Source: Atopobiaceae bacterium
Lineage (GTDB): Bacteria; Actinomycetota; Coriobacteriia; Coriobacteriales; Atopobiaceae
Assembly (NCBI GenBank): GCA_030525685.1
Contig: JAUNEG010000012.1
Location: forward strand, 289-64,288
Direction of reading: 5' to 3'
DNA length: 64,000 nt
In this document: positions 4,577-63,660 of the stretch, in pieces
Layout: the number at the start of each line of letters is the position of its first letter
How positions within the stretch are numbered: the stretch's first letter is position 1
Position numbers and translations under genes: made by a program
The notes under the pieces: model-generated
What the model was told of the DNA's origin: nothing
Database searches by the model: none
Seen by the model: only the letters and a program-made list of their open reading frames with translations

Positions 4577-4944
4577 CTACCCCTCGACCTCGCGCAGCAG
4601 GTCGCGGGGTCCACGCCGTAGAGGCGAGCGAGCTTCACGAGGTTCGTGGTGGACGGCTCGGACGCGCCCTGCTCCCACTTCGAGACGGCCTGCCGGCTCA
4701 CGCCGAGCTTCTCGGCCACGAGCTCCTGCGTCATCTTGCAGCGCTCGCGGTGAGCGCGCAGCACCTCGCCGAGCGAGCGGCGCGCGGCCACGGTCTCGGG
4801 GCTCTTGTCAGCCTTCTCCTGCCGCAGGAACCAGCGGATGGCGAGGACCACCAGCACGATGAAGAGGACCCACGGAACAATACGGCCAAGGAGGATCGGA
4901 ATCAAGATTATCACGAGCTCCATCGGCCCCATCCCATAGATCAT
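4577..4944 (-). CDS. XRE-family HTH regulator with N-terminal transmembrane segment; apparent 1-nt frameshift near the 3' end
   Basis: MTQELVAEKLGVSRQAVSKWEQGASEPSTTNL HTH; AAGGAGG RBS; adding one base after GVDPA gives DLLREVEG-stop at 4577. Confidence 0.8.
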
Positions 4945-5011
4945 GACGCCCTCCTTACGCCGGCTTTGCCCCACTGTAGCCGAGCGCCGCGGTTGCGCAC
5001 ACCACCTATCG

Positions 5012-5278
5012 CGCAACGCGCGGAAGCGCATTGAGCACTTGCAGACTGACCCTAAAAGCTACTGCGTTTATATGCGCAATCTGTACTATGAGGAGCAAGC
5101 GGCCGAGAAGGAGAAGCGCCTCTCAGATTTTCTTTTGGAAAACCCAACAGCGTCCAAGCGTTCTGCGAGTAAGGCGCTTGGCATGTCCATGACGACCGTA
5201 TCGAAATACTGGTTATCGGCGTGTGAATCGGCTGGAATCAAAGACGCCAGAACCGGAAACCATTCGCCAAACTGTTAG
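5012..5278 (+). pseudogene. Detached C-terminal HTH portion of rep2
   Basis: RNARKRIEHL...DFLLENPTASKRSASKALGMSMTTVSKYW aligns with the rep1 tail (RNGRTQAEHV...EHPEASHSEIARALDVSRPTVIKW) and is in frame with rep2 across the 8-bp repeat. Confidence 0.75.
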
Positions 5279-5301
5279 GTAAATGCGCTGCTCATCATGG
5301 T

Positions 5302-5328
5302 ATACATATGCATGTTATACGTATGTAT
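5302..5328. promoter_or_regulatory. Putative RHH operator/centromere upstream of parA
   Basis: ATACATATGCAT (5302-5313) and ATACGTATGTAT (5317-5328), each one mismatch from palindrome ATACATATGTAT. Confidence 0.6.
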
Positions 5329-5343
5329 ACTAGGGAGGGAAAC

Positions 5344-5931
5344 GTGATAATCCCGGTTCTGAACATCAAGGGGGGCGTCGGCAAGACGACCACGGCCATA
5401 GCCCTCGCGACCGCAGCCGTCAGGGCTGGTCATGGGTCGAAGGTACTCGACGCCGACGAGCAGGGGAGCGCGACGCTGTGGGACGACACGGCTGAGCAGG
5501 CAGGTGAGCCCCTCCCCTTCCCCATCGACCCGATCAACGCGACGAGGATAAAGGCGCTCAGGCCGGAGGCCGACACATGGTGCTTCATCGACTGCGCCCC
5601 GAGCGGCAAGGCGCTCGACGCTGCCAAGGAGAAGGCCGACTTCGTCGTGATACCGACCACGCCAGCCGGTCTGGACATGCAGCAGACGTGGGTGACGGCC
5701 GAGAACCTTGTCGAGTCCGGCAAGCCGTATGCCGTGCTCCTCACGCGCACGCGCTCACACACGCTCGCGCTCGCAGCCGTGGAGCACGAGATGGAGGAGC
5801 GCGAGGCGTCGTACTTCGATGCGCAGATACCGCTGCGCGAGGACATCAAGAACTTCTTCGGGCACTCCTTCGGAAAGGACCTATACGGGTACGAGGACGT
5901 GTTCAAGGAGATTGAGGAGGCGCTTTCCTGA
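5344..5931 (+). CDS. parA: Small plasmid-type (type Ib) ParA ATPase
   Basis: Deviant Walker A KGGVGKTT, LDADEQGS, FIDCAP; no N-terminal HTH; GGGAGG RBS before GTG. Confidence 0.9.
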   Translation: MIIPVLNIKGGVGKTTTAIALATAAVRAGHGSKVLDADEQGSATLWDDTAEQAGEPLPFPIDPINATRIKALRPEADTWCFIDCAPSGKALDAAKEKADFVVIPTTPAGLDMQQTWVTAENLVESGKPYAVLLTRTRSHTLALAAVEHEMEEREASYFDAQIPLREDIKNFFGHSFGKDLYGYEDVFKEIEEALS

Positions 5932-6176
5932 TGGCGGTCAAGAAGAGGCCCAAGCCGATAATCGCCCCACAGCGGCAGAACGCCGGCCCGCTGCTCATGG
6001 ACAACCAAGACACCAAGAACAAAGGGGACGGCACGAAGGCACCGAAGAGGCCGACGACCATCCTCCTGCCGGACGACCTGAAGCGAGAGGCCCAGACATA
6101 CGCGGAGGAGCGCGGGACGACCCTGACAAGGCTCATCGTTGACGGACTTAGATGGAGGATTTCGCAGGTAGATTAG
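5931..6176 (+). CDS. Ribbon-helix-helix partition adaptor (ParG-like)
   Basis: Flexible N-terminus followed by TTILLPDDLKREAQTYAEERGTTLTRLIVDGL; start overlaps the parA stop. Confidence 0.75.
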   Translation: MAVKKRPKPIIAPQRQNAGPLLMDNQDTKNKGDGTKAPKRPTTILLPDDLKREAQTYAEERGTTLTRLIVDGLRWRISQVD

Positions 6177-6212
6177 CTATACATATGTATTTTATACATA
6201 TGTATAGCTAAT
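6171..6212. promoter_or_regulatory. Perfect 20-bp inverted repeat containing two ATACATATGTAT palindromes; putative centromere
   Basis: GATTAGCTATACATATGTAT-TT-ATACATATGTATAGCTAATC. Confidence 0.65.
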
Positions 6213-6217
6213 CTCAT

Positions 6218-6616
6218 CTAGGTCTTGTTTTTTGCATACAGCTCGTGGGAAGCGATGACGGCGGAATACAGTGAAATACATAAAGTAAATAACAGAAGGT
6301 GTGTCAAGTCGCTTGCAACGTGCTGTCTCAAGGCGTAGGCAGAAAATCCGTTTAGCAAATAAATAATACATGCAGATACGAGTGACGCTACGACACTGCT
6401 TCTGCGCCTATATGTTGAAAGAGCTACCAAAGCAATAAAAAACAGCGATATGAACCATTCTAAATAGGTTATTTCGCGCACTGAGAACGAGCATCCATGG
6501 AAATAATTAAAAACTGTATCTTTATATAGCAGATATAGAACAATCGAAGTAATCGTTGTTATGCTAATAAGATTCCTGGTAGACAAAACAACTACCTCTT
6601 CAGCGCCGTCGGCCAA
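6218..6616 (-). CDS. AT-rich multi-pass membrane protein (candidate immunity protein)
   Basis: 132-aa ORF with 3-4 hydrophobic stretches, directly downstream of a secreted protein; start codon uncertain. Confidence 0.6.
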   Translation of the reverse strand: MADGAEEVVVLSTRNLISITTITSIVLYLLYKDTVFNYFHGCSFSVREITYLEWFISLFFIALVALSTYRRRSSVVASLVSACIIYLLNGFSAYALRQHVASDLTHLLLFTLCISLYSAVIASHELYAKNKT

Positions 6617-6653
6617 ACGGGTTTGGCCGACGGCGATTGCTTCTGCTATATGC

Positions 6654-7268
6654 CTATGAAATCACAATATTGAAGCCCTGTCCTCCGGCCGTTGTTACAT
6701 CCAACGAGGCGTTGACATAGTAAACAACCACGATACCACTGTAGCTCTTGCTCTTATTCATACTCGTGCTCTTGACGTTATTTGCGGTATGAGACACGCT
6801 TCCCTCATACGCAATGACATATCCTCCAGAAACGACTCCATAGGATTGACAATTGACGCTCATGGTCATTGATTTTGGAGTCGAACCAGATGTTACTGTT
6901 GCTTTCGTATTGCCGCCGTAGTTGTATTCAAATGTTCCATTATGCCAAAAGCTTCCGCTGAAGCGTACTGTTGTCCCATACTGGGTTTTCGTTTGGTTGA
7001 AGTTTCTCGTTTGGTTTTGAGCTCTTGTTTGTGGCGATTGCGCGTCCATCGCATACATCTCAATGAACTTGGCATCTTCACCGGTAACTACGTCGCCTGG
7101 ATCATACTTATCGTAGAGTTCGTCGAAGCGTTCGCTGATTTGCTCTTGAGATAGATTAGATAAGGACTCTTCGGCATATGCCTGTGTCGGATTAAAGGCA
7201 GAAATCACAAGTGCCGTCAGCGCAAGGGTGATGGAGAATGCTAATGCAGCCATCCTTCTTGCAATCAT
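6654..7268 (-). CDS. Sec-secreted protein with acidic pro-like region and beta-rich C-terminal domain
   Basis: Signal peptide MIARRMAALAFSITLALTALVISAFNPTQAYA; AGGAGG RBS; AT-richer than host DNA. Confidence 0.8.
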   Translation of the reverse strand: MIARRMAALAFSITLALTALVISAFNPTQAYAEESLSNLSQEQISERFDELYDKYDPGDVVTGEDAKFIEMYAMDAQSPQTRAQNQTRNFNQTKTQYGTTVRFSGSFWHNGTFEYNYGGNTKATVTSGSTPKSMTMSVNCQSYGVVSGGYVIAYEGSVSHTANNVKSTSMNKSKSYSGIVVVYYVNASLDVTTAGGQGFNIVIS

Positions 7269-7454
7269 TTTTGCCTCCTTTACTCCGTCTGCTTATTCTG
7301 AAGGCGCGCCATCCGCTGACTTCAGAATGAATTATAATAGCCGCATGTTCATGGCTTTAGATTCATTCGATAGGCGGTAGGAATATGCCACTGGCGGTCC
7401 ACTCTTACACCGATACTCAAGTCGCATGGCCCGAGTTTTGCGATAAGTGCATTG

Positions 7455-7724
7455 TTATGCTTGGGCTGCTAGGTAGTAGTCAAGTGCGTCTCGGTAGACC
7501 TCTGAGGTCTTGACCCCCCGGCTGCGGGCTATCGCCGCCACGCGCTGCGTGTCTCTCGCGTCGTAGATGACCGTCACGCGGCGCTTGCCCACCGCGTCGA
7601 GGTGGGAGCCGGTGAAGACCTCTCCGCCCCCGCTCGGATAGTCTCCGCTCTCGTAGGGAGCGGCCATCGCGTCGAGTTCGGCGTCGGTGAGGCCGTGCTT
7701 CCTCATGTACTCGGATACGTTCAT
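7455..7724 (-). CDS. RHH/CopG-like antitoxin (BrnA-like)
   Basis: C-terminal RVTVIYDARDTQRVAAIARSRGVKTSEVYRDALD; follows the toxin gene. Confidence 0.7.
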   Translation of the reverse strand: MNVSEYMRKHGLTDAELDAMAAPYESGDYPSGGGEVFTGSHLDAVGKRRVTVIYDARDTQRVAAIARSRGVKTSEVYRDALDYYLAAQA

Positions 7725-7729
7725 GCTTC

Positions 7730-7990
7730 TCACCTCTCCAATCCTAGCTCGCGGAGCGTCTTGCCGGTCGGCGGTGTCATTCCGTGGAACACAAAGAAGA
7801 AGTCGTCCTCCTCGTCGTACTGGTAGACCAGCTCAACGAGCCTCCCCCTGCCGTCAAGGCCGACCGCCAGCCACTCGCCCGTCGGGCGCTGGTGATAGGA
7901 AATCATCCCGCGCATCGCGGCGGTGACGTCCTCCGGCGTGACCTCCGGGTGCCGCTGCGTGACCCTTGGGTGAACCCCTATCGTGCTCAA
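7730..7990 (-). CDS. BrnT-like toxin
   Basis: VHPRVTQRHPE...WLAVGLDGRGRLVELV...VFHGM pattern; toxin-first order; TTG start with GAGGAGG RBS. Confidence 0.7.
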   Translation of the reverse strand: MSTIGVHPRVTQRHPEVTPEDVTAAMRGMISYHQRPTGEWLAVGLDGRGRLVELVYQYDEEDDFFFVFHGMTPPTGKTLRELGLER

Positions 7991-8008
7991 GGCGTCCTCC
8001 TCTCGAAC

Positions 8009-8027
8009 ATATGATGTGACATCATAT
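8009..8027. promoter_or_regulatory. Putative TA operator
   Basis: Perfect inverted repeat ATATGATG-TGA-CATCATAT upstream of the toxin gene. Confidence 0.55.
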
Positions 8028-8385
8028 CATACTATGCTGATACCCAAGGACAGGAGACCCAAAACAGGGCGCTCGCGCAGCTGGATGGGCCGCACACACA
8101 GCCTAGAAATTGTGTTAGCTGGAATCCGTAAATTATGTTAAACGAGCTGGTGAACGATGTCGTTTTGACATGGAAGACCCCGGCCCTCGCGGCGCTCCGT
8201 TTGCGCCGTTGGTGCCGAGATCTTCGCTGCGGCGGTATCTCGTGGGCTGCGATTGCCCGGAGAGCCTACCGCGCCCGCCGTCCCTCTGGCTGCGGTTGCC
8301 CGACAACGGTTTGGCTGTCACCCGGATTGTAACCGACGCCCATACCCTGTTGGATAAAACAACCAGCCCTCGCGGCGGCAGTGCC

Positions 8386-8760
8386 TCAAACCGGCCTCAC
8401 GTCGCACTCGGGCACGTGCTTGTGGAGGCACGGCTCGCCGTCGCAGGCGGGCGACTCACGCACGAAGACGTCATAGGACCAGTCGCAGCCCTTGAAGGCC
8501 CTCCGCCCGCGCCCACGGTAGTCCACTGTCCCCACCGTCCCGGACAGCTCGCCCCACTTCGTCTCGAACCTCACGGCGTCGCCGACTTTGAAGCGCGGGC
8601 GGTGGCGTCGCGCCCATTCGTCCCAAGGCTCGCACTCCACGACGTTCGCCACGCCGCGCCGGTCTATGACGGCGGCGACGGCCTCCTCCATCGAGTCGGC
8701 ATCGACGGGAACGGGCACCCAGCTGCCGTCGTCCGTGAGCACCGTCACGCGCCACGTCAA
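8386..8760 (-). CDS. Hypothetical protein, 124 aa, with possible SH3/KOW-like C-terminal domain
   Basis: TTGA start/stop overlap with the upstream ORF; PRFKVGDAVRF...GTVGTVD. Confidence 0.55.
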   Translation of the reverse strand: MTWRVTVLTDDGSWVPVPVDADSMEEAVAAVIDRRGVANVVECEPWDEWARRHRPRFKVGDAVRFETKWGELSGTVGTVDYRGRGRRAFKGCDWSYDVFVRESPACDGEPCLHKHVPECDVRPV

Positions 8761-8924
8761 CGCCGACCACCGTCCTCCCGCCCCTCGACGGCCCCCTCCT
8801 GTATCGCGGCCACCGAGTCGATGATTTTCTTCATGTCCAGCGCGAGCTGACGGCACTCGGCCTTCGTCTCGCACGCCCCGAACCAGCGCACCACGTCGTC
8901 TGAGGCGACCTCCAAGAGGTTCAC
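8757..8924 (-). CDS. Small hypothetical protein, 55 aa
   Basis: GTG start with GGAAGG RBS; tightly packed between neighbouring ORFs. Confidence 0.45.
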   Translation of the reverse strand: MNLLEVASDDVVRWFGACETKAECRQLALDMKKIIDSVAAIQEGAVEGREDGGRR

Positions 8925-8928
8925 GGAC

Positions 8929-9081
8929 TTAACCCTTCCTGTCTGCCGCTTCCTCGCGATCCCTGCCTTTGCGCTCCCAAGTGCGCAGCCGCTTCGCGGC
9001 GTCAGCCGTCGGCAGCTCCTCGGCCCTGCACTCGGTGATTTTGTAGCCGTAGCGGTCAATCCACGCCGCCAGAGCGTCCAT
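8929..9081 (-). CDS. Small hypothetical protein, 50 aa
   Basis: MDALAAWIDRYGYKITEC...; first gene of an operon divergent from relBE. Confidence 0.4.
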   Translation of the reverse strand: MDALAAWIDRYGYKITECRAEELPTADAAKRLRTWERKGRDREEAADRKG

Positions 9082-9169
9082 GTCGATTTGCTTCCAGTCC
9101 CCGTCGCGAGCGTGGAAAGTTGTTATATAATAGTATATACCGACATACACCAACGAAGGGAGGGGCGAC

Positions 9170-9406
9170 ATGGCGACAGCGCTGACGGCAATCAGGGCGC
9201 CGGAGGAAGTGATGGAGCGCTACACGCGCCTCGCGCAGGGCACGGGCAGGTCGAGGAGCTTCTACATCAACGAGGCTCTTGAGGAGTCCATCGACCGCCT
9301 TGAGTACGAGTACGGGATTCTCCGCAAGGTCGAAGACTGGCGTGCGGGAAGGCTTGAGACCGTGAGCCTCGACGAGCTGGAGGACAGCCTTGGCTTGGCG
9401 GATTGA
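9170..9406 (+). CDS. relB: RHH antitoxin (RelB-like)
   Basis: TAIRAPEEVMERYTRLAQGTGRSRSFYINEAL; overlaps relE. Confidence 0.8.
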   Translation: MATALTAIRAPEEVMERYTRLAQGTGRSRSFYINEALEESIDRLEYEYGILRKVEDWRAGRLETVSLDELEDSLGLAD

Positions 9407-9662
9407 AATCGACAAGGACGTCCAGCGGGAGATGAAGAAGCTGGACAAGCAGGTCGCCAAGAGAATCACGGCCAAGCTGTGGGAAGTGTCGCAGCTCGAT
9501 GACCCGAGGAGCATGGGCAAGGGGCTGACCGGAAACCTCGCTGGTCTGTGGCGCTATCGGGTCGGCGACTACCGAATCATCTGCGACATCGAGGACGGCG
9601 TGCTTCTGATCCTCGTTGTCGATGTGGCGCACAGGCGCGAGGTCTACAAGCGCCGGGGATAG
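9390..9662 (+). CDS. relE: RelE/ParE-family toxin
   Basis: GKGLTGNLAGLWRYRVGDYRII...VAHRREVY. Confidence 0.9.
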   Translation: MAWRIEIDKDVQREMKKLDKQVAKRITAKLWEVSQLDDPRSMGKGLTGNLAGLWRYRVGDYRIICDIEDGVLLILVVDVAHRREVYKRRG

Positions 9663-9700
9663 CCGGAAGCCCCCTCGGACGCCGTTCCGCAGGGGGCTTC
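9661..9700 (+). terminator. Hairpin terminator; copy 1 of a 40-bp direct repeat
   Basis: GAAGCCCCCT...AGGGGGCTTC stem; 38/40 identical to 15526-15565. Confidence 0.8.
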
Positions 9701-9847
9701 CTCATGGGTGACCAATTACTGTATTGATAAATAAAAGGTCTGGCGGCGTGCCCGTATCGAGGGTGTAAAATAGCTTCATTGAATAATAATATGATCGGCG
9801 CCGCCGCCGCCGACCCCTATATGTTGTGGTTGGGGATGGAGGGTGCA

Positions 9848-11428
9848 ATGGCAGAGGTTCGGAGCGTTGACGAGCAGGTTGCCGAGTACGTCAACAAGCA
9901 CGCCGCCCTGATGCTTGAGCTTGGTGAGCCTGTGACGCCCTACCGCTTCTACCGTGAGGTGTTCCCGGAGGGCTTCTTGCAGGATGCCTACCGGGTGAAC
10001 CCCGCTGCGCCCCATGACGGGAAGTTCGTCGCCATCGCCAACGTGATTCACGAGAGGAAGGACGGCAAGGGCGTCTACCGCAGGAACCACTACGTCCTCG
10101 ATGACCTCACCCAGATAACCAAGTGGACGAACCAGGTGGCGTTCATGACCCCGTGCTCGTTCCTCGGTGGGGCCAAAGACCTCGAGCACCTGCGCTACCT
10201 GCACGCCATCGTCGTTGATCTCGACTACGTGGGCGCTCAGCAGCTCACGGACGTGTTCCACCAGTGCCAGATAGGGTTCCTCCCCACACCGACCTTCATC
10301 GTGAACTCCGGCACCGGGCTTCACCTGTACTACGTCCTAGAGCAGCCCGTCACCTGCTACAAGAAGCAGCAGGAGTGCTACAACGCCCTGAAGCACGCGC
10401 TCATCGACCTGTGCTGGAACGAGTACACGTCGCAGAGCGGCGACCGCCAGTACTCCGGTCTCGTGCAGCCCTACCGCATCCCCGGCACGCGGACGAAGCT
10501 CGACGTGGACAGGGAGACGCAGAGGGTCGTTTCGAGCGACTTCCCCGTGACCGCGTTCCGCTACGGCGGCAAGTGGACCATAGACGCGCTGCTCGACTGG
10601 GAGCCGCGCCCGAACGTCGGCACGCGCTACTACACCGAGCGCTGCGCCGGAATCCGAAAGATGCTGCGCGGCGAGATAGACGGCTTCGAGATAGCGAACA
10701 ACGGGCGCTACGTCGAGCACGGGGAGGGCAAGGTGCCGCTCGAGGTCGCCAAGGAGCGGTGGCCGGAGTGCTACGACCGCCGCATCCTGCACGGCGAGCC
10801 GCCGAAGGAAATCAAGGACTACAAGTGGCACGTGAACCCGCGCGTCTACGAGTGGTGGCTGCGCAAGATAAAGGCCGACGCGGAGCCGGGGCACCGGTAC
10901 CACTGCATCATGTGCCTCGCCATCTACGCCATCAAGTGCGACGTGCCCTACGCCAAGCTCAAGGAGGACGCCTACTCGCTCCTCGAGGTGTTCGACGGGC
11001 GCACCACCGAGGAGACGAACCACTTCCACGCCAGCGACATCGCCCAGGCGCTCAAGGCGTACCGAAACAAGGTCTACGCCACGTTCCCCATCGGCTCTAT
11101 CGAGTACTTCTCCGGCCTCCGAATTGATCGAAACCGCCGCAATGGTAGAACCCAAGCCGAGCACGTTGCGAGGATGAGCGCGCTTAGGGATGTTGACTAC
11201 CCAGACGGCTCATGGCGCAACAAGGGCGGCGCGCCCACGAAGAGCGAGCGGATACGCGCCTACGCCGTCGAGCACCCGGAGGCAAGCCACAGCGAGATTG
11301 CCCGCGCCCTCGACGTGTCCAGACCGACCGTAATCAAGTGGCTCAAGCCGGGGTGGCGCGAGGAGTGGGACGAGGAGCACAGGCCGCGCATCACCGGCCA
11401 CGTGCTCACGGTGAGATACGTCAGGTAG
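9848..11428 (+). CDS. Plasmid replication initiator rep1 (AEP/primase-like domain, helical domain, C-terminal HTH)
   Basis: VVDLD, NSGTGLHLYY, YRIPGT, PGHRYHCIM and C-terminal HTH; GGAGG RBS before ATG 9848. Confidence 0.8.
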   Translation: MAEVRSVDEQVAEYVNKHAALMLELGEPVTPYRFYREVFPEGFLQDAYRVNPAAPHDGKFVAIANVIHERKDGKGVYRRNHYVLDDLTQITKWTNQVAFMTPCSFLGGAKDLEHLRYLHAIVVDLDYVGAQQLTDVFHQCQIGFLPTPTFIVNSGTGLHLYYVLEQPVTCYKKQQECYNALKHALIDLCWNEYTSQSGDRQYSGLVQPYRIPGTRTKLDVDRETQRVVSSDFPVTAFRYGGKWTIDALLDWEPRPNVGTRYYTERCAGIRKMLRGEIDGFEIANNGRYVEHGEGKVPLEVAKERWPECYDRRILHGEPPKEIKDYKWHVNPRVYEWWLRKIKADAEPGHRYHCIMCLAIYAIKCDVPYAKLKEDAYSLLEVFDGRTTEETNHFHASDIAQALKAYRNKVYATFPIGSIEYFSGLRIDRNRRNGRTQAEHVARMSALRDVDYPDGSWRNKGGAPTKSERIRAYAVEHPEASHSEIARALDVSRPTVIKWLKPGWREEWDEEHRPRITGHVLTVRYVR

Positions 11429-11433
11429 GGCGG

Positions 11434-11488
11434 GTGTGCTCGCTTTGTCGCACACGGTAGAATGGGGTGTGCGCGCTTTGTGGCACAC
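11434..11488. promoter_or_regulatory. Two 22-bp GTGTG...CACAC repeats with 33-bp period flanking TAGAAT (copy 1)
   Basis: GTGTGCTCGCTTTGTCGCACAC (11434) and GTGTGCGCGCTTTGTGGCACAC (11467); repeated at 11850-11904. Confidence 0.65.
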
Positions 11489-11502
11489 CCGGCTCAACAG
11501 GG

Positions 11503-11844
11503 GAGTACTTCTCCGGCCTCCGAATTGATCGAAACCGCCGAAATGGAAACAGGCAAGCGGAACACCTCGAAGAGGCGCGTGCCATACGCGACGTTAGGCA
11601 GAAGCGCAAAGGCTCGAACTGGTGGGACAACGGGAACAGGAGCGGTGCGCCGGAGAAGAAGAACATCGTGCGCGCCTATGCCGTCGAGCATCCGGGCGAG
11701 AGCAACAGGAAGGTCGCCGCAGCGCTCGGAATGAGCCGCAACACCGTCAACAAGTGGCTCAAGCCGGGGTGGCGCGAGGAGTGGGACGAGGAGCACAGGC
11801 CGCTCATCACCGGCCACGTGATCACGGTGAGGCGCGGCAGATAG
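11503..11844 (+). other. Start-less alternative 3' cassette of rep1 (second HTH tail)
   Basis: Begins with 38 bp identical to 11102-11139; open frame EYFSGLRIDRNRRNG...HTH...TVRRGR-stop; no RBS or ATG. Confidence 0.85.
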
Positions 11845-11924
11845 GGCGGGTGTGCTCGCTTTGTCCCACACGGTAGAATGAGGTGTGCGCGCTTTGTGGC
11901 ACACCCGGATCAACAGGGGAAACG

Positions 11925-12239
11925 ATGGCGGAGAAGAGCAAGAACACACAACACATATCGCTGCGCGTGCCGCTCAAGGAGCTGTCCGTCATAGACATCT
12001 ACGCCGCCGCGAACGACCTCTCCCGCGCACAGGCCGTGCTCCACTTCGTGCGTCAGAGCATCGCCGCCGAGACGGGGGAGAAGCCGGTTACGAAGTCAGA
12101 CCTCGTCGCCCTCGCAGCCACGCTCACGAAGGCAATCGAGAGCCAGCCCGTCAGCGTGCAGCTGCCGCCGCAGCCACCGCCCCCGGCGCTCGAGTCGAGC
12201 AAGCAGAAGAAGCGACCGTGGTGGCGGTTCTGGGGCTGA
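11925..12239 (+). CDS. RHH (CopG-like) plasmid protein with basic-aromatic C-terminal tail
   Basis: QHISLRVPLKELSVIDIYAAANDLSRAQAV; ends KKRPWWRFWG. Confidence 0.7.
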   Translation: MAEKSKNTQHISLRVPLKELSVIDIYAAANDLSRAQAVLHFVRQSIAAETGEKPVTKSDLVALAATLTKAIESQPVSVQLPPQPPPPALESSKQKKRPWWRFWG

Positions 12240-12558
12240 GCTCCCGATAGTCGTGGTTGGCCCTTCCATTCAGTAGGGTGTCAAATTGTGCACCCTTGAC
12301 CTAATGCGACACATCCGTTCATGGCGCTGATTTATCCATTAGCCGAACAGTAAAGATGTTCTGTTCTCTTAGGGCGAGGTCAGGGTATATCCCATCAATC
12401 AAACTGCATTGGCGAGGGGTGGGTTTATGTCTCCGATAGATTTTGTCCGCATCAGAACCCATTATCCCCGTGAAAATGGCCTCCTATCCTAGCGGTACCG
12501 AATCGCATTCGATGCCGCCAATCACTCAGCAAAATGGTGATGATATTGGAGGTGCCTC

Positions 12559-13263
12559 ATGAAGCTCACGCGCAGAACCTTTCTTTCGTCCGCTGCGGCT
12601 GCCGCCTCGTTTCTTCTAATCCCCAAGAGTGCACTTGCAGCGCAGACTGATGATGTCGGTGAATTTCCAGATGAGTCTCCTGTTTCGGTCGAGATAATCG
12701 ATGAGGATACTTTTTCTATCCAGGACTCCTACGGGACATGGATTGTTTCCATTAGTGAATCTGGCCCGTACAGAATCACTGCTGCCGTGGCTCCGGATGG
12801 ATCTCAGGAAACCATTTCCTATAACAGGAAAACTGGAGAGGCCTATTCGTCAGCTACGGTTCAGGTTGTTATTCTCGGGGTTGATGAAACCTATCAAGAT
12901 GTCCCGGAGACCAAGGGTGTTATCGACCATGATCCTCAGCCAATTTACAATGGGCCATCGAGGAAGGAAACCGAGTACATCTCGTATCAGCAGCTGAAGT
13001 CGATTGCTGGAAGCGTGTCGAATGTTGCCGGCATTCTGATAGCAATAGCCGGTATCGTTGGATTTTCCATCGTTGGGACGTTCGTCGCCGGATTCGTTAA
13101 CGACAACATAGGACGCATCCTCGACGCCCTTTCCGATGGTGACCCCAATCATGGCCTAAAGCTCAAAGTTACTTTGACTGAACGGTATACCATCCATCCC
13201 ACGACCGGGGCTCACATTTACTACGACACTCTCAGGACCGTAAACAGCGTTAGCTTCTATTAG
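12559..13263 (+). CDS. Twin-arginine-signal secreted protein with hydrophobic C-terminal segment (candidate bacteriocin/toxin)
   Basis: TRRTFL Tat motif and ALA cleavage site; GILIAIAGIVGFSIVGTFVAGFV hydrophobic run; GGAGG RBS. Confidence 0.75.
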   Translation: MKLTRRTFLSSAAAAASFLLIPKSALAAQTDDVGEFPDESPVSVEIIDEDTFSIQDSYGTWIVSISESGPYRITAAVAPDGSQETISYNRKTGEAYSSATVQVVILGVDETYQDVPETKGVIDHDPQPIYNGPSRKETEYISYQQLKSIAGSVSNVAGILIAIAGIVGFSIVGTFVAGFVNDNIGRILDALSDGDPNHGLKLKVTLTERYTIHPTTGAHIYYDTLRTVNSVSFY

Positions 13264-13279
13264 CTGGCGATTTGCACGA

Positions 13280-13705
13280 TTGGATGAACCAATGGCGCTG
13301 CGAAAAATGGACGATCGGAGCACCCGAATCAACAAGATTGCCTCCATCGTTTTTGCCGTCTGCTTTGTGACAATGGTTGCTGTCGGTTCGATGCAGGATG
13401 TCGTCCTCCCCGTCAGACTTGCCCTTGCCATCGTGGGGACGCTAGCCGCATTTTTAGGAAGCCCGCTGTTCGGACGACTCGGCATGACGTGGGTTTCCTT
13501 TTTCTTCGTCTCCGGAATCTTGAGGATGTCGGCAGATGCGAGAATTCAGTTTGCCCTTCTCGTAATTGAGGCGGCATTGATTGTCTTCTACATTGGGCTT
13601 GTCAGAACTGGGAAGTGTAAAGACGAGCAAAAAGTGGGGGGAATCGCGCTAGTGGTAGCCGACGTCCTATTATTTGCAGATGTTGCCATGACTCATGTGA
13701 TTTAG
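13280..13705 (+). CDS. Four-to-five-TM membrane protein (candidate immunity protein)
   Basis: Hydrophobic 141-aa ORF starting 16 nt after the Tat-protein stop; an inverted repeat AAGGGTCGATGG/CCATCGACCCTT follows near 13819-13853. Confidence 0.65.
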   Translation: MDEPMALRKMDDRSTRINKIASIVFAVCFVTMVAVGSMQDVVLPVRLALAIVGTLAAFLGSPLFGRLGMTWVSFFFVSGILRMSADARIQFALLVIEAALIVFYIGLVRTGKCKDEQKVGGIALVVADVLLFADVAMTHVI

Positions 13706-14045
13706 TGCAACGTTTCCGTGGCTCCGACTCTCATGACGCAGTGTTCCGACCCTTTGGGCCGGAACGACTCCCCTGGTTCGAACAAGAAAGTCACACGCGC
13801 TCGCAGGCTTGGGCAAAGAAAGGGTCGATGGAGCAGAGCGTCCATCGACCCTTAATCAAGTCTGGTCTTGTCGGCTGACCGTCGCGTCAATTCCGCAATC
13901 CGTGAACGAGGTCTCCGTAGATCCGCTGCGCGGAACTACTCCGCCCCCGTGGTCACGCATTGCTGCATTGACCCGACTACCCTTCCTCACCTGCAAGCAA
14001 ATCATATCTGTAGCTCTTGAGATACTCGCGCATGAATTTACCTAT

Positions 14046-14327
14046 TTACGCTATGGCCATGAGGCCGTCGGCGAGGATTCCACGGGCATATGCGCCCGTT
14101 GACTTGCCCTCGGCCTTCGCTTCCTTCTCAAGAGCCCGCTTCATGGCGGCGGGAACCTTGAGTGACAGCGTCACGGTCTCGGGCGCGGCCTTCGGGAGCT
14201 TGCCCTCGACGATCTCGCCGACGTTGACCCATCCGCTGGGCCACTCATCGCGCTCAAGGGCGCTTTCCCAGTCGGCAATCATCTCGTCGGTCACGACCCT
14301 GCCGTTCTCGGCAACAATTCCGTTCAT
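14046..14327 (-). CDS. RHH antitoxin (BrnA/CopG-like)
   Basis: ETVTLSLKVPAAMKRALEKEAKAEGKSTGAYARGIL; GGAGG RBS. Confidence 0.7.
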   Translation of the reverse strand: MNGIVAENGRVVTDEMIADWESALERDEWPSGWVNVGEIVEGKLPKAAPETVTLSLKVPAAMKRALEKEAKAEGKSTGAYARGILADGLMAIA

Positions 14328-14329
14328 GT

Positions 14330-14584
14330 CTACCTCCATCCCAGCTCACGCTTGAATTTCTTCGCCGGCGGCACCATCGCGTGAAACACGCACCAGACGC
14401 CGTCGATATCCATGAACCCAATCAGCTCGGCAAACCTCCCATCGGGAAGCGAGCCGACCGAAATCCAGAGCGGCGGGTCATCCGTGCCGTTTCGCTGGCG
14501 GCACCGAATCGGGTTCTCCCACGCATACGCGACTTCCTCGCTGGTAAGCCCGTGCTTGAGGGCGTTCCCGTGCACTCTGACCAC
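14330..14584 (-). CDS. BrnT-like toxin
   Basis: VHGNALKHGL...WISVGSLPDGRFAELI...VFHAM. Confidence 0.75.
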   Translation of the reverse strand: MVRVHGNALKHGLTSEEVAYAWENPIRCRQRNGTDDPPLWISVGSLPDGRFAELIGFMDIDGVWCVFHAMVPPAKKFKRELGWR

Positions 14585-15024
14585 TGCCGTCCTCCCTTCT
14601 TTTCTAGTAAGTATACCCTATTAGTATACCAAATCAAAAGCACCGTGCTCCCAACACGCAAACGGGGGTGGCGTCACCCCCGTTTCCATGCCGCGAGCAC
14701 TCTCGCACTGCTGTACTAGCAGTGCTCACCGGCCAAGGCCACTCTCCGAGTTGCAAGATTTGGGAAAGGGTACTCAAATCCCGCTTTTGGCGGCATTTTC
14801 CTCCCTTTCCATCTTGCCTTTCGGGCGGACTTAGGGTCCCTCCCGAAAGGGGGTAAGAACACGCGGATGGCTTCATCCTTGATATAGTCCAAAACCGCGT
14901 TTTCGGACTTCCGAAAAACGCTTTCGGGAAATCGGCACGGTGGCTTCACCGTGGTTCCCGATTCCCGATTTCTGAAAACCGCAAACCCACGATTAGAGAA
15001 AGGGGGCTGGAACCCGCTCCGCAG

Positions 15025-15249
15025 ATGGTCTCAGAGAGCCTCAGAGCGCCCTGGACGGCTCGAAGCGATGGAGCGCGAGAGGAAAGCTTGCAGGAGAGGT
15101 TGAGGGCCTTAGAAAGCGAATCAGAGCGTTTGAAGGCCAAAATCAGCGAGCGCGAGAGCGAGTGGCGGAGCTTGACCGAGGGCTGTCTGGGCTTCGAGTG
15201 GGACGACCGCCAGTGGCGTGCAAGCTTCGTGTCCCGTCAACGGACGTAA
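15025..15249 (+). CDS. Short coiled-coil ORF, possibly a remnant
   Basis: LQERLRALESESERLKAKISERE heptad pattern; no clear RBS. Confidence 0.3.
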   Translation: MVSESLRAPWTARSDGAREESLQERLRALESESERLKAKISERESEWRSLTEGCLGFEWDDRQWRASFVSRQRT

Positions 15250-15418
15250 AACGTCCTTATCGACGGGACACCGGGCGGTCCCCTCCCGGCTTGCCCTTGC
15301 CCGCGCGAGGGAGGGCCGGCCCGCGCCGGCCGCCGCTCCCGCGGGGCGGGAGGGCACCGCCCCGCGGCGGTGCGAGAGCGGGCCCCGCGGCCCGCACGTC
15401 AGGGAAGGTGGTGCGTCG

Positions 15419-15511
15419 GTGAAGGTGACGAGCGCGCCCGGCCTCATCGCGGGAATCGCCCTGCCGGTCGTCATCTTCGGAGCCGGGTTCCTCCTCGGCA
15501 AGGACAGGTAG
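15419..15511 (+). CDS. 30-aa single-TM peptide (candidate type I toxin)
   Basis: MKVTSAPGLIAGIALPVVIFGAGFLLGKDR; GTG start with GGAAGG upstream; terminator follows. Confidence 0.5.
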   Translation: MKVTSAPGLIAGIALPVVIFGAGFLLGKDR

Positions 15512-15525
15512 ACGGCCAGCAGGAG

Positions 15526-15565
15526 AGCCGGAAGCCCCCTCGGGAGCCGTTCCGCAGGGGGCTTC
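15526..15565 (+). terminator. Hairpin terminator; copy 2 of the 40-bp direct repeat
   Basis: 38/40 identical to 9661-9700. Confidence 0.8.
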
Positions 15566-15764
15566 GTCTTGGCCGCGAGGCCAGTTGTCGTAACAACGAA
15601 ATACGGGCTATCAGCCTTGGCTTGGTACGGAAAAACGGGCTTCCAAGGGACCGTTTTCCGTACCAAGTGATACACTTCTATTGTTCAAATTACACCCCTC
15701 AATGCTGACTGTGGGGATAGGGCAAGGGAAGGGGAGTCCCCTTCCGCTCGGATTGGAGGTCCCC

Positions 15765-17450
15765 ATGCCTTCCGGCCGCATCACTCCCGACCATCCGACC
15801 GTACGCATCAACCCCTTTGAAATTCGCTCCTCCTCCCTTCCCGACGAGCAGAAGGAAGCCCTCCTCGCCTTCTGGAGCGAGCAGCAGCTCGCCGAGGAGG
15901 CCGAGCGTCAGGAGAGGGAGCTGGCGTATCAGACGGAGCAGGCCCGCTTCGTCCTGTCCCAGCCCGGCTGGTGCGAGATTCGCGCCGATTGGCTCGACCA
16001 AGCGCGGAACAGGCGGGACAGGAACGAGTGGTGCTTGGACTCCGCTGCAAGGTCATACGTCTACGACGATGACGGCAGGGGATACAGTCTCCTCTCCCTG
16101 CCCGAGGACGTTCCGACAATCCATCAGTTCTACCGTGACCTCTACGGCACCGAGGTGTCCGCCTTCCTGCCCGAGCCCTGCCCCATCCTCGTCAACCACC
16201 GGGACAGGAAGCACCCATATCAGGTCTATGACGACTACGAGACGTTCACAGAGGCCGTCCAGAAGGAGACGTCCTTCATCTACCTCGGGAGATTCTGGGA
16301 GCCGACCCGCAGGGACGGGCTCAGGTTCTCGACGTCAAAGAAGAACGTCATGACGCACATAAGCGGCGTGTGCGTGGACATCGACCGCGTCGAGGACGAC
16401 AAGGGTCAGCACTTCCAAGCGAGATGGGTGATGGAAAGCCTCTTCGAGTTCCTTTGGGAGAACGAGGGTCTTACGCCGAACTATCTCATGCTCTCGGGAA
16501 CGGGCATCCAGCTATGGTACGTGTTCGGCCAGTCCATACCCCTGCTGTCGAAGTCATCCCCGAGGCGTTCCAAGTACGATTCCTTCATCAAACTCCTGTA
16601 CGCCCACTTCGACGAGAGGCTGCCGAAGAACAGGTTCAAGGTCGATAAGGCGTGCGCCGCCTACAACCATGCCTTCCGCGCCCCCGGCTCCCCTTCAAAG
16701 AACGGGTATCCGGCCCGTCTCTTCGTGAGGGAAGGCGCGAGCCGCCCCATGATTGATCCAATCGCCCTTTCCGACCAAATCGGGGCCGAGCTGAAGCCCT
16801 ATGACGTCGGCGATTGGGATTCCGATGGGTTTGCGGCCATGACCGGCAGGAAGGGCGGCGGAAAGTCGCCAGCGAGCGAAAAGCAGCTTGCCTACATCCG
16901 CAAGCTTCACGCCAGGGGGTGCATAGATGACGAGACGTTCGGCAGGGCCGCCGAGATGACCATCGCCGATGCCGACGCTGCCATCAAGGCTGGAGAGAGC
17001 TCGTTCGTGAACGGTCTGCACTGGCGCGAGACGCAGGGAGGGTATGCCGAGACGACCAACGGGCACCGCGTGAAGCTCAGGCCGAGGAGCAGGAAGCTCT
17101 ACGAAAACACGCTCGAAAGGGTGCTCGCCGAGACGAAGCCCGGCTCGCGCTACATGTCGATGTTCGTCTTGGCTGGCCTCGCCTACAACTGCAACGTCTC
17201 GAAATCGTCTCTAGAGCACGACCTGAGAAAGCTCATGGACAGCGACTGGGGGCGCAAGCCGTCGCCGTCCGACGGGCATCCCATAACGATGCGAGACATA
17301 CGCTCGGCCATGAAGGGATACAACCCGATTGGGTGTCTGAGGAGCAGGGAGATAATCGAGGGGCTTGTCGGCTGGTCGTTCGGCCCGTCGGCGAAGCGCA
17401 ACGGCAGGTTGCGTTTCGGTTGCGGCGGGAACGTCCGCCTGGGGGCCTAG
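15765..17450 (+). pseudogene. Replication initiator rep2, interrupted at 17403; last 15 codons are host-derived
   Basis: CVDID, LSGTGIQLWY, FRAPGS, PGSRYMSM; similarity to rep1 ends at KRN and the HTH tail lies at 5012-5278. Confidence 0.75.
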
Positions 17451-63404: not shown

Positions 63405-63660
63405 GTGAGGAAGGGCCTCATCCGGATCCATGAACGCATCCCCCGCCGACATCCGGAACTCTCGGCGACCGGCGTGCTGAAAGCATGGAGCAGCGCCTTC
63501 GTCGTCGCCGAGCGCGTCGGCGACGACCTGCCCCATCCCACGCTCGTCGCCCTTGGGCATGACGGGCGGGGAAGGGCTCTGGAGTTGATGGGAACCGTTC
63601 TGGAGGATGGGTCCGTCCTCGTTTTCCACGCCCAGACCCCTCCAGCGAAGTGCCCGAGCC
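63405..63660 (+). pseudogene. Orphan BrnT-like toxin gene or remnant
   Basis: IHERIPRRHPEL...LVALGHDGRGRALEL...VFHAQTPP resembles the 7730-7990 toxin; the frame runs on into ybaK; no antitoxin follows. Confidence 0.5.

Follow-up and report, generated by a model that had tools for sequence, protein, structure and literature searches.

An integrated two-replicon plasmid of an Atopobiaceae bacterium and a repeated hairpin that is probably a module boundary rather than its fusion seam

The window considered here, a stretch of 64,000 nucleotides from an Atopobiaceae bacterium (assembly GCA_030525685.1, contig JAUNEG010000012.1, positions 289 to 64,288), contains a 12,385-bp element (window positions 5024-17408, inside contig C45) that carries two replication genes, rep1 and rep2, each preceded by one copy of a 40-bp hairpin-forming direct repeat. 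The original prediction viewed this repeat as the point at which two small plasmids of 5,865 and 6,520 bp had fused and could separate again. The data are best explained by a two-replicon plasmid integrated in the chromosome, whose hairpin is probably a terminator-like module boundary that existed before the fusion and not the fusion seam itself. Multireplicon and integrated plasmids, as well as the cassette-wise evolution of small plasmids, are already well known; this locus adds a clear case from the gut Coriobacteriia, whose plasmids have hardly been described.

The two hairpin copies (copy 1, 9661-9700; copy 2, 15526-15565; both on the plus strand, delimited by repeat scan, alignment and folding) are in direct orientation, start 5,865 bp apart and match at 38 of 40 positions, exactly as had been proposed. 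Copy 1 reads AGCCGGAAGCCCCCTCGGACGCCGTTCCGCAGGGGGCTTC; both differences of copy 2 lie in the loop (AC replaced by GA) and the longest perfect run common to both copies is 20 nt. By a rough estimate, about 1e-9 such repeat pairs would be expected by chance in 64 kb; an assembly artefact at the hairpin was rejected, as the copies differ and the identical run is this short. In alignment A1, the block common to both copies and to the relatives described below spans AGCCGGAAG to GGGGGCTTC, and a weaker copy-to-copy similarity continues for about 20 nt past the 3' end (to ~9720 for copy 1). Each copy folds into a GC stem of 10-11 bp with a 3-5-bp extension (folding energies of -32.1 and -28.7 kcal/mol; z of -3.7 and -2.3). 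From the relE stop codon, copy 1 extends to 78 nt 5' of the rep1 open reading frame (ORF); copy 2, whose start lies 14 nt past the stop codon of a gene remnant, stops 115-150 nt short of rep2, which agrees with the claimed position directly upstream of each rep region (~80-150 nt). When all 49 contigs of the assembly (1.93 Mb) were scanned with up to 8 substitutions allowed, only these two copies were found, both within the element; the 40-mer is therefore not a dispersed host terminator. Exact-pattern scans of genome contigs and viral contigs found none, the pattern scan of metagenome contigs found two contigs only (L027 and L028), and the Rfam search gave no match.

The element had been regarded as a free circle, an idea that the chromosomal junctions contradict. 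The homology of the left flank to six relatives ends at 5023 and that of the right flank restarts at 17396, and a precise empty site, in which the two flanks abut with a 13-bp overlap, is found in G002 and G014. At the left junction, the chromosomal microhomology copy GCGCAACGCGCGG (5011-5023) marks the end of the homology to these empty sites and the plasmid starts at 5024; at the right junction, the plasmid copy GCGCAACGGCAGG occupies 17396-17408 and the chromosome starts at 17409. The left junction reads chromosome-GCGCAACGCGCGG followed by plasmid AAGCGCATTGAG, and the right one reads plasmid GCGCAACGGCAGG followed by TTGCGTTT-chromosome. An intact relative, L025, spans the same point without interruption (GCAACGGCAGGAAGCGTATCGAG); its intact plasmid sequence reads GCAACGGCAGG up to this point and AAGCGTATCGAG from there on. 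The 13-bp microhomology lies inside rep2, is identical at 11 of 13 positions, and is all that resembles att sites at the element ends; contig C45 encodes neither a tyrosine nor a serine recombinase (no PF00589 or PF00239 match), so that the element does not correspond to an integrative element with its own recombinase. Insertion appears to have occurred by illegitimate recombination at this microhomology. An assembly artefact at the junctions was rejected, as a mere 13 bp (11/13) are in common there, and no second copy of the element was found elsewhere in the assembly. Two small contigs, C35 (6,533 bp) and C38 (5,932 bp), were considered as candidates for the predicted circles and rejected: their sizes are similar but their sequences are unrelated to the element. 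The sole likeness between C38 and the element is a paralogue (C38 4215-4808) of the plasmid Sec-signal protein, with 36% identity.

A neighbouring LacI-type gene shares 98% identity with its Thermophilibacter gallinarum counterpart and the further matches are from Olsenella or other Atopobiaceae, indicating that the host belongs to the Atopobiaceae (Thermophilibacter/Olsenella) and not to Collinsella. All named plasmid relatives come from Collinsella (Coriobacteriaceae), the others being unbinned gut contigs, and none of 38 other genomes of the host genus matches the region 13700-15600. This distribution suggests a transfer between families followed by a dead-end integration.

The insertion has cut rep2 in two. 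Its 5' part (15681-17408, plus strand, codons 1 to ~576) was assigned by homology and by the structure model of a relative to a primase-like initiator of the archaeo-eukaryotic primase (AEP) fold, and its 3' part (5024-5278, plus strand, ~85 codons), which includes the C-terminal helix-turn-helix (HTH), was recognized by homology at the other end of the element. Once joined, 15681-17408 and 5024-5278 form a single 660-aa ORF that is colinear from end to end with the proteins P0121 and P0122. In agreement with this, the C-terminal ~90 residues of full-length Rep2 proteins align with ORF 4943-5278, the 3' part is 84% identical to the C-terminus of the Rep2 of L016 and 78% to that of L025, and the Rep2 of the window has 589 aa versus 640-690 aa in relatives.

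That both genes are rep genes is well supported. Rep1 (9779-11428, plus strand; an AEP-fold, primase-like initiator with a C-terminal HTH according to Foldseek, motifs and homologues) shares 90% identity with the Rep encoded by L014, a circular plasmid of 7.5 kb, and homologues with about 33% identity occur in 214 plasmid records, including circles of a few kb, one Clostridioides difficile homologue being annotated as repA. Rep2 is 92% identical to the Rep2 of L013; PLSDB holds no match to it. Searches of Pfam, NCBIfam and the PDB with both sequences gave nothing beyond the C-terminal HTH, and the exact-protein look-up of Rep1, Rep2 and BrnA2 of the window found none, all relatives coming from homologue searches. 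Structure models were built from family alignments (pLDDT of 83 for Rep1 and 82 for Rep2), that of Rep2 being based on P0121, an intact relative with 93% identity, and not on the truncated protein of the window. Foldseek matched the Rep1 model with the PrimPol of S-2L (6zp9, E 3.7e-6) and RepB' of RSF1010 (3h20, E 5.7e-6), and the Rep2 (P0121) model with RepB' (3h20, E 8.7e-5) and a CRISPR-associated prim-pol (7nqd, E 0.017).

According to our reading of the alignments, a DxD motif is invariant in both families; motif II (sGxGxH) is invariant in Rep1, and in Rep2 it reads sGtGiQ, with an invariant Gln in place of His. In the Rep2 family (alignment A3), motif II continues as sGtGiQLWY and a later Asp is invariant beside DxD. 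Like RepB' and other prim-pol initiators (3h20; ORF904 of pRN1), both Reps would have an AEP fold with an invariant DxD; they differ from them by the C-terminal HTH, by the absence of a recognizable helicase domain, by their position outside curated families and, for Rep2, by the Gln of motif II, which may reflect an altered catalysis or a non-catalytic initiator. Rep1 and Rep2 share only 22-26% identity. They define two related, unannotated families of AEP-primase Reps with a C-terminal HTH, each of which drives its own small plasmids in Collinsella, one fused copy having become trapped in a Thermophilibacter chromosome. The leaders of rep2 (15660-15700, GTGATACACTTCTATTGTTCAnATTACACCCCTCAAT) and rep1 (9762-9815, GTGTAAAATAnC...ATTGAATAATnATAnGGTCGGCGGCG), each proper to its Rep family, are so highly conserved that relatives of only 65-78% identity still have them, and are likely to be promoter/operator or origin sequences. 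A tandem duplication of ~400 bp (11102-11920) over the 3' end of rep1 has generated a separate 125-aa ORF, a diverged Rep1 HTH tail that is 78% identical to the tail of L014; L014 and L028 have a single copy.

As had been supposed, the element joins two replicons, both of which exist on their own. L014 and L015 represent a rep1-only circle of 7,502 bp (same length in two samples, 30-nt terminal overlap) with the order DUF3847-like gene, MobA/L relaxase, 126-aa gene, 202-aa gene, relB, relE, hairpin, rep1, ribbon-helix-helix (RHH) gene, Tat-signal protein and membrane protein; L028 is a second rep1-type plasmid of this kind. Rep2-only circles include L016 (9,583 bp) and L017-L019 (~12,005 bp, from Collinsella sp. 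An2). L013, which encodes the closest Rep2 relative (93% identity), has the order relaxase, 126-aa gene, 202-aa gene, hairpin, rep2, parA and 81-aa gene, and every one of the more distant Rep2 plasmids associates rep2, parA and the 81-aa gene with a mobilization (Mob) module. None of the ~17 relatives fetched has both Reps. The element thus unites two types of replicon that are found separately. The search for the 40-mer upstream of other rep genes, as had been advised, was rewarding, since L013, L014, L015 and L028 each carry one copy, in single-replicon plasmids. No circle of 5.9 or 6.5 kb with the predicted junctions was found among the fetched loci. The arithmetic of the prediction is right (5,865 + 6,520 = 12,385 bp, the length of the element).

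If the fusion, which the original prediction placed at the hairpin, had arisen by a crossover there, each copy should have material from different parents on either side. Within the few relatives sampled for the comparison of flanks, neither copy shows a novel joint of this kind, with its two flanks taken from different parents. Window positions 9110-11488 match L014 2988-5396 at 92% identity without a break over copy 1 (relBE, hairpin and rep1), and 15424-17404 match L013 2459-4443 at 94% without a break over copy 2 (end of the 202-aa gene, 14-nt spacer, hairpin and rep2). Both arrangements are therefore parental and the seams most likely lie elsewhere. The gene pair relBE had been placed in the rep2 half, but it accompanies rep1 in L014, L015 and L028.

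Two other joints can be recognized. At J1 (9113-9119, from the comparison with L014), a truncated DUF3847-like gene meets the relBE promoter and the whole Mob module of L014 (~127-2988) is missing; to its left lie rep2-type genes in the order of L017, namely BrnT/BrnA-like pair 1 (91%), orf162 (91% to L025) and orf100. At J2 (15424), unrelated sequence with a weak relaxase relic runs into the 88-bp 3' end of the 202-aa Mob-module gene (15424-15511, plus strand, recognized by homology to L013, L014 and L028), with J2 at its left edge. The Mob modules of L013 and L014 are 94% identical over 2,546 bp and Mob alleles are not sorted by Rep type. The fusion seams thus most likely lie in deleted mobilization modules (~9113-9119 and 15424) and not in the hairpin, as such a module would have been a far better substrate for recombination than a 40-mer with a perfect run of 20 nt. 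The simplest description would be a rep2 plasmid whose Mob core has been replaced by a rep1 segment.

A fusion at the hairpin itself, between mini-plasmids of 5,865 bp (rep1) and 6,520 bp (rep2) that could resolve there again, is rather unlikely, even though several features speak for it. Single-replicon relatives of both Rep types have a single hairpin 5' of rep, the hairpin is the sole direct repeat common to the two halves, homology and mosaic breakpoints occur at its edges, and small staphylococcal plasmids do fuse at short common sequences, RSA and RSB (PMC5703833). Against it stand the single-replicon flanks of both copies, the absence from every relative of the arrangements that it predicts (202-aa remnant-hairpin-rep1 and relBE-hairpin-rep2), the lack of a recombinase on the contig, and the remnants in both halves of the 2.5-kb, 94%-identical Mob module. 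The present state, with rep2 split, could not release a circle of 6,520 bp. In addition, the longest perfect match of 20 nt falls below the minimal efficient segment for RecA recombination in Escherichia coli (~23-27 bp).

Several observations nevertheless weigh against a seam in the Mob modules and a terminator-like hairpin. The 88-bp remnant of the 202-aa gene matches L014 and L028 at 85 of 88 positions versus 80 of 88 for L013, i.e. it is slightly nearer to rep1-type plasmids, and the 14 nt that follow it match L013 exactly; this discordance would be compatible with a crossover close to the hairpin. If plasmids in which the two arrangements are exchanged (relBE-hairpin-rep2 or 202-aa end-hairpin-rep1) exist outside the sample, a fusion at the hairpin would be just as simple. 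The order of events, either a Mob-by-Mob fusion and two deletions or a single insertion-deletion, is deduced by parsimony from few relatives, and the integration is known from one short-read assembly. Finally, the description of the repeat as a terminator hairpin held only in part: each copy is a GC stem-loop after a stop codon, but no U-tract follows either of them (the next bases are CTCATGGG and GTCTTGGC), and a consensus terminator scan did not call the full hairpin.

With the seams placed in the Mob modules, the history of the element could be reconstructed as follows. The backbone would be a rep2-parAB plasmid with a Mob module made of the DUF3847-like gene, an origin of transfer (oriT), the MobA/L relaxase gene, the 126-aa gene and the 202-aa gene; its core would now hold the rep1 segment, i.e. 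relBE, hairpin, rep1, the RHH gene, the Tat/membrane cargo, an element resembling a single-strand origin (sso), BrnTA pair 2 and the relaxase relic. Most likely, two plasmids would have recombined through their 94%-identical Mob modules, or one would have inserted into the Mob module of the other, and deletions would then have removed both Mob copies, locking the fusion. The fused plasmid would have entered the Thermophilibacter chromosome at the 13-bp microhomology, splitting rep2. Each parent would already have had a hairpin between the preceding gene (relE or that of 202 aa) and the promoter or leader of rep, where it would insulate rep expression against read-through. Homology would break at the hairpin because it is the only sequence kept while the cassettes on either side are exchanged. 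This scenario recalls the cycle of fusion and deletion of multireplicon plasmids in staphylococci (Ipoutcha et al. 2026, PMC13672794), in which replicons are likewise joined through a common mobile or homologous sequence and then trimmed by deletions that spare the backbones. It differs in that no insertion sequence or transposase is involved, the mobilization module acts as the common sequence, and the product was then integrated in the chromosome.

Apart from the hairpin copies, the two halves no longer have a direct repeat in common, and a rare recombination between these copies would free a 5,865-bp rep1 circle from the chromosome. Besides rep1, this circle would take along the RHH gene, the Tat/membrane cargo, the sso-like element and BrnTA pair 2; the chromosome would keep the split rep2, the par genes, the other cargo, BrnTA pair 1, relBE and one hairpin. 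As integration has split rep2, a 6,520-bp circle would need the prior excision of the whole element. Both predicted circles would be recombinants, with arrangements seen in no relative, and not the parents of the fusion. Resolution is expected to be rare, given a maximal identity of 20 nt, a spacing of 5.9 kb and the lack of a recombinase, an expectation that draws on the length dependence of both RecA-dependent and RecA-independent recombination.

Among relatives, the hairpin behaves as a recurrent module boundary. It lies 3' of a stop codon in all five contexts (0-2 nt after relE, 14 nt after the 202-aa gene), and its right neighbour varies, being the leader of rep1 or rep2 or, in L027, an unrelated EamA-like gene on the opposite strand. 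The 94% homology between the Mob modules of L013 and L014 stops at the stop codon of the 202-aa gene and the hairpin is the sole further block common to both; the window and L014 are 97% identical up to the hairpin and 68% just past it; the window and L028 are 63-85% identical to its left and 92-94% to its right. These breaks agree with the modular family that had been envisaged, and the breakpoints cluster at the 3' edge of the hairpin. Other mosaic breakpoints lie away from it, e.g. at 9280-9340 and 11123-11287, and selection for intact cassettes alone may therefore account for the clustering. With its two copies in the genome, both 5' of rep, the 40-mer is no common dispersed terminator there; L027 has the hairpin without rep, and the more distant members of both Rep families lack the 40-mer. 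Whatever its function, the hairpin is a useful landmark of the left edge of rep cassettes for tracking module exchange.

In L027 (1-1407), relBE and the 40-mer are 96% identical to the window and, 20 nt past the hairpin, where L027 diverges, are joined to an EamA-like transporter gene on the opposite strand; L027 may represent a chromosomal context, or that of another plasmid, for the relBE-hairpin cassette. Rolling-circle replication (RCR) plasmids of Collinsella aerofaciens and Eggerthella lenta (pCaero2, L033, 3040-3165; L034, 170-300) also carry relBE, followed there by a different hairpin and an unrelated rep. Comparison of these plasmids indicates that relBE directly 5' of rep is a recurrent arrangement in Coriobacteriia.

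The pattern fits a terminator or insulator of the upstream unit that would screen the rep promoter. Intrinsic terminators without U-tract ('I-shaped') have been described in high-GC Actinobacteria, their activity in vitro being disputed. The repeat resembles them by its perfect GC-rich stem right after a stop codon, without a T run, in an actinobacterial host with 67% GC. Unlike ordinary terminators, this predicted one is conserved at 95% between otherwise unrelated flanks.

It is very unlikely that the hairpin is instead a replication element, i.e. a site of single-strand initiation (ssi) or primase loading for AEP-type Reps comparable to ssiA and ssiB, the 40-nt hairpins used by RSF1010 RepB'. 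A stable 40-nt hairpin does stand beside each rep gene, and both Reps match the RepB' primase fold in their models. However, the same hairpin would have to serve two Reps with only 22-26% identity, it follows relBE with no rep downstream in L027, and its copies are on the same strand, contrary to the RSF1010 type, in which the ssi are primase-specific and form a pair on opposite strands. Moreover, it is absent from the distant Rep1 plasmids L029 and L030 and from the Rep2 plasmids L016-L025, L031 and L032, whose homology to the window starts only at the rep leaders (~9762 and ~15660); L016 has 52 nt between the upstream gene and rep2, and L030 has a different hairpin at the same place. A Rep-specific origin element would thus fit the pattern poorly.

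The clustering of breakpoints also raises the question of recombination. In staphylococcal RCR plasmids (pT181, pE194, pUB110), cointegrates form and cassettes are shuffled at RSA and RSB; RSB lies within the hairpin-forming lagging-strand origin ssoA, and RSA corresponds to the oriT, where cointegrates are made by the Pre/Mob relaxase (PMC5703833). The coriobacterial family similarly has a common short hairpin and a common Mob/oriT module. It differs in that its replicons are of the AEP-primase type and not rolling-circle, the relaxase genes of the element are deleted, leaving no Pre-mediated recombination, and the hairpin copies keep their parental flanks, so that the hairpin probably was not the crossover point. 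A view in which the hairpin and its 20-nt 3' extension form a recombination hotspot, a linker for swaps of toxin-antitoxin (TA), mobilization and replication cassettes and for reversible replicon fusion in Coriobacteriia plasmids, is unlikely; if true, the integrated element could release an autonomous 5.9-kb rep1 plasmid from the chromosome. That the hairpin and the following ~20 nt are a dedicated site for a host or plasmid enzyme of cassette exchange, fusion and resolution is highly improbable. Three independent homology breaks 0-25 nt from the 3' edge and one exactly at the 5' edge would favour such a site, as would the precedent of RSB. Conversely, the element encodes no recombinase, no core-and-arm layout is recognizable, breakpoints at module boundaries are expected from selection alone, and others are off the hairpin. 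Recombination activity of the hairpin, if it proved real, would account for the shuffling of these plasmids.

The other modules of the element largely follow the gene lists given earlier for each half, whose coordinates were correct, two of the labels needing revision. In the rep2 half, the 3' part of rep2 is followed by a par pair (5308-6176, plus strand; parA 5308-5931, Pfam CbiA/AAA_31, and its 81-aa partner 5931-6176) that is 92% and 99% identical to that of L013 and lies 3' of rep2 in L013, L016-L025, L031 and L032. A near-perfect palindrome (6170-6214) right after the 81-aa gene is conserved in L013, L025 and L032, whose homology to the window stops there; it is probably the terminator of the par operon. 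The following cargo (6218-7268, minus strand, AT-rich with 45% GC) encodes a membrane protein of 132 aa and a Sec-signal protein of 204 aa and matches no family and no related plasmid. BrnT/BrnA-like pair 1 (7455-7990, minus strand) shows 91-92% protein identity to a pair on the rep2-only plasmid of Collinsella sp. An2 (L017-L020) and has no Pfam match over threshold. Then come orf162, orf100 and the C-terminal remnant of the DUF3847-like gene (8929-9171), which together (8386-9171, minus strand) correspond to the backbone that relatives have 5' of their Mob module: orf162 shares 91% identity with L025 and 64% with L017, the gene order is that of L017 4611-6561, and orf80 (DUF3847-like) is 77% identical to a gene of L015 and 65% to the 99-aa DUF3847 protein of L028. 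The relB (RHH) and relE/ParE toxin genes (9170-9662, plus strand; Pfam ParE_toxin, E 3e-14, and RHH), located 5' of rep1 in L014, L015 and L028, are 96-99% identical to those of L014.

In the rep1 half, sequence comparison places the duplicated rep1 tail (ORF 11467-11844) and a 118-aa RHH protein (11883-12239) downstream of rep1 (11467-12239, plus strand). They are followed by cargo (12559-13705, plus strand; signal prediction and L014 homology) for a Tat-signal protein of 234 aa and a membrane protein of 141 aa, which share 64% and 56% identity with the pair of L014. A 180-bp non-coding element (13811-13990) with the shape of a single-strand origin (z of -6.0 for the single-stranded DNA fold of the minus strand) is common to small RCR plasmids, being 88-90% identical to sequences of C. 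aerofaciens pCaero2 (two copies flanking pre) and E. lenta pF2-3_2. BrnT/BrnA-like pair 2 (14046-14584, minus strand; sub-threshold BrnT_toxin and RHH matches) is 36-47% identical to a pair of L026. The label 'BrnT-like' remains below threshold (Pfam BrnT_toxin E 0.056, PHROG toxin E 0.001), and the 'small peptide' ORF (15218-15511) turned out to be a fusion ORF whose last 28 codons come from the 202-aa mobilization-module gene. Just 5' of this remnant, a weak relic of the C-terminal region of a Pre-like relaxase (15007-15150, plus strand) shares 75% DNA identity, and 37.5% protein identity over 48 aa, with the 'plasmid recombination protein' of pCaero2, hinting at a third, decayed mobilization module. 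A third BrnT-like ORF, with 36-39% identity to pairs 1 and 2, was noted at ~63420-63650, in the chromosomal part of the window.

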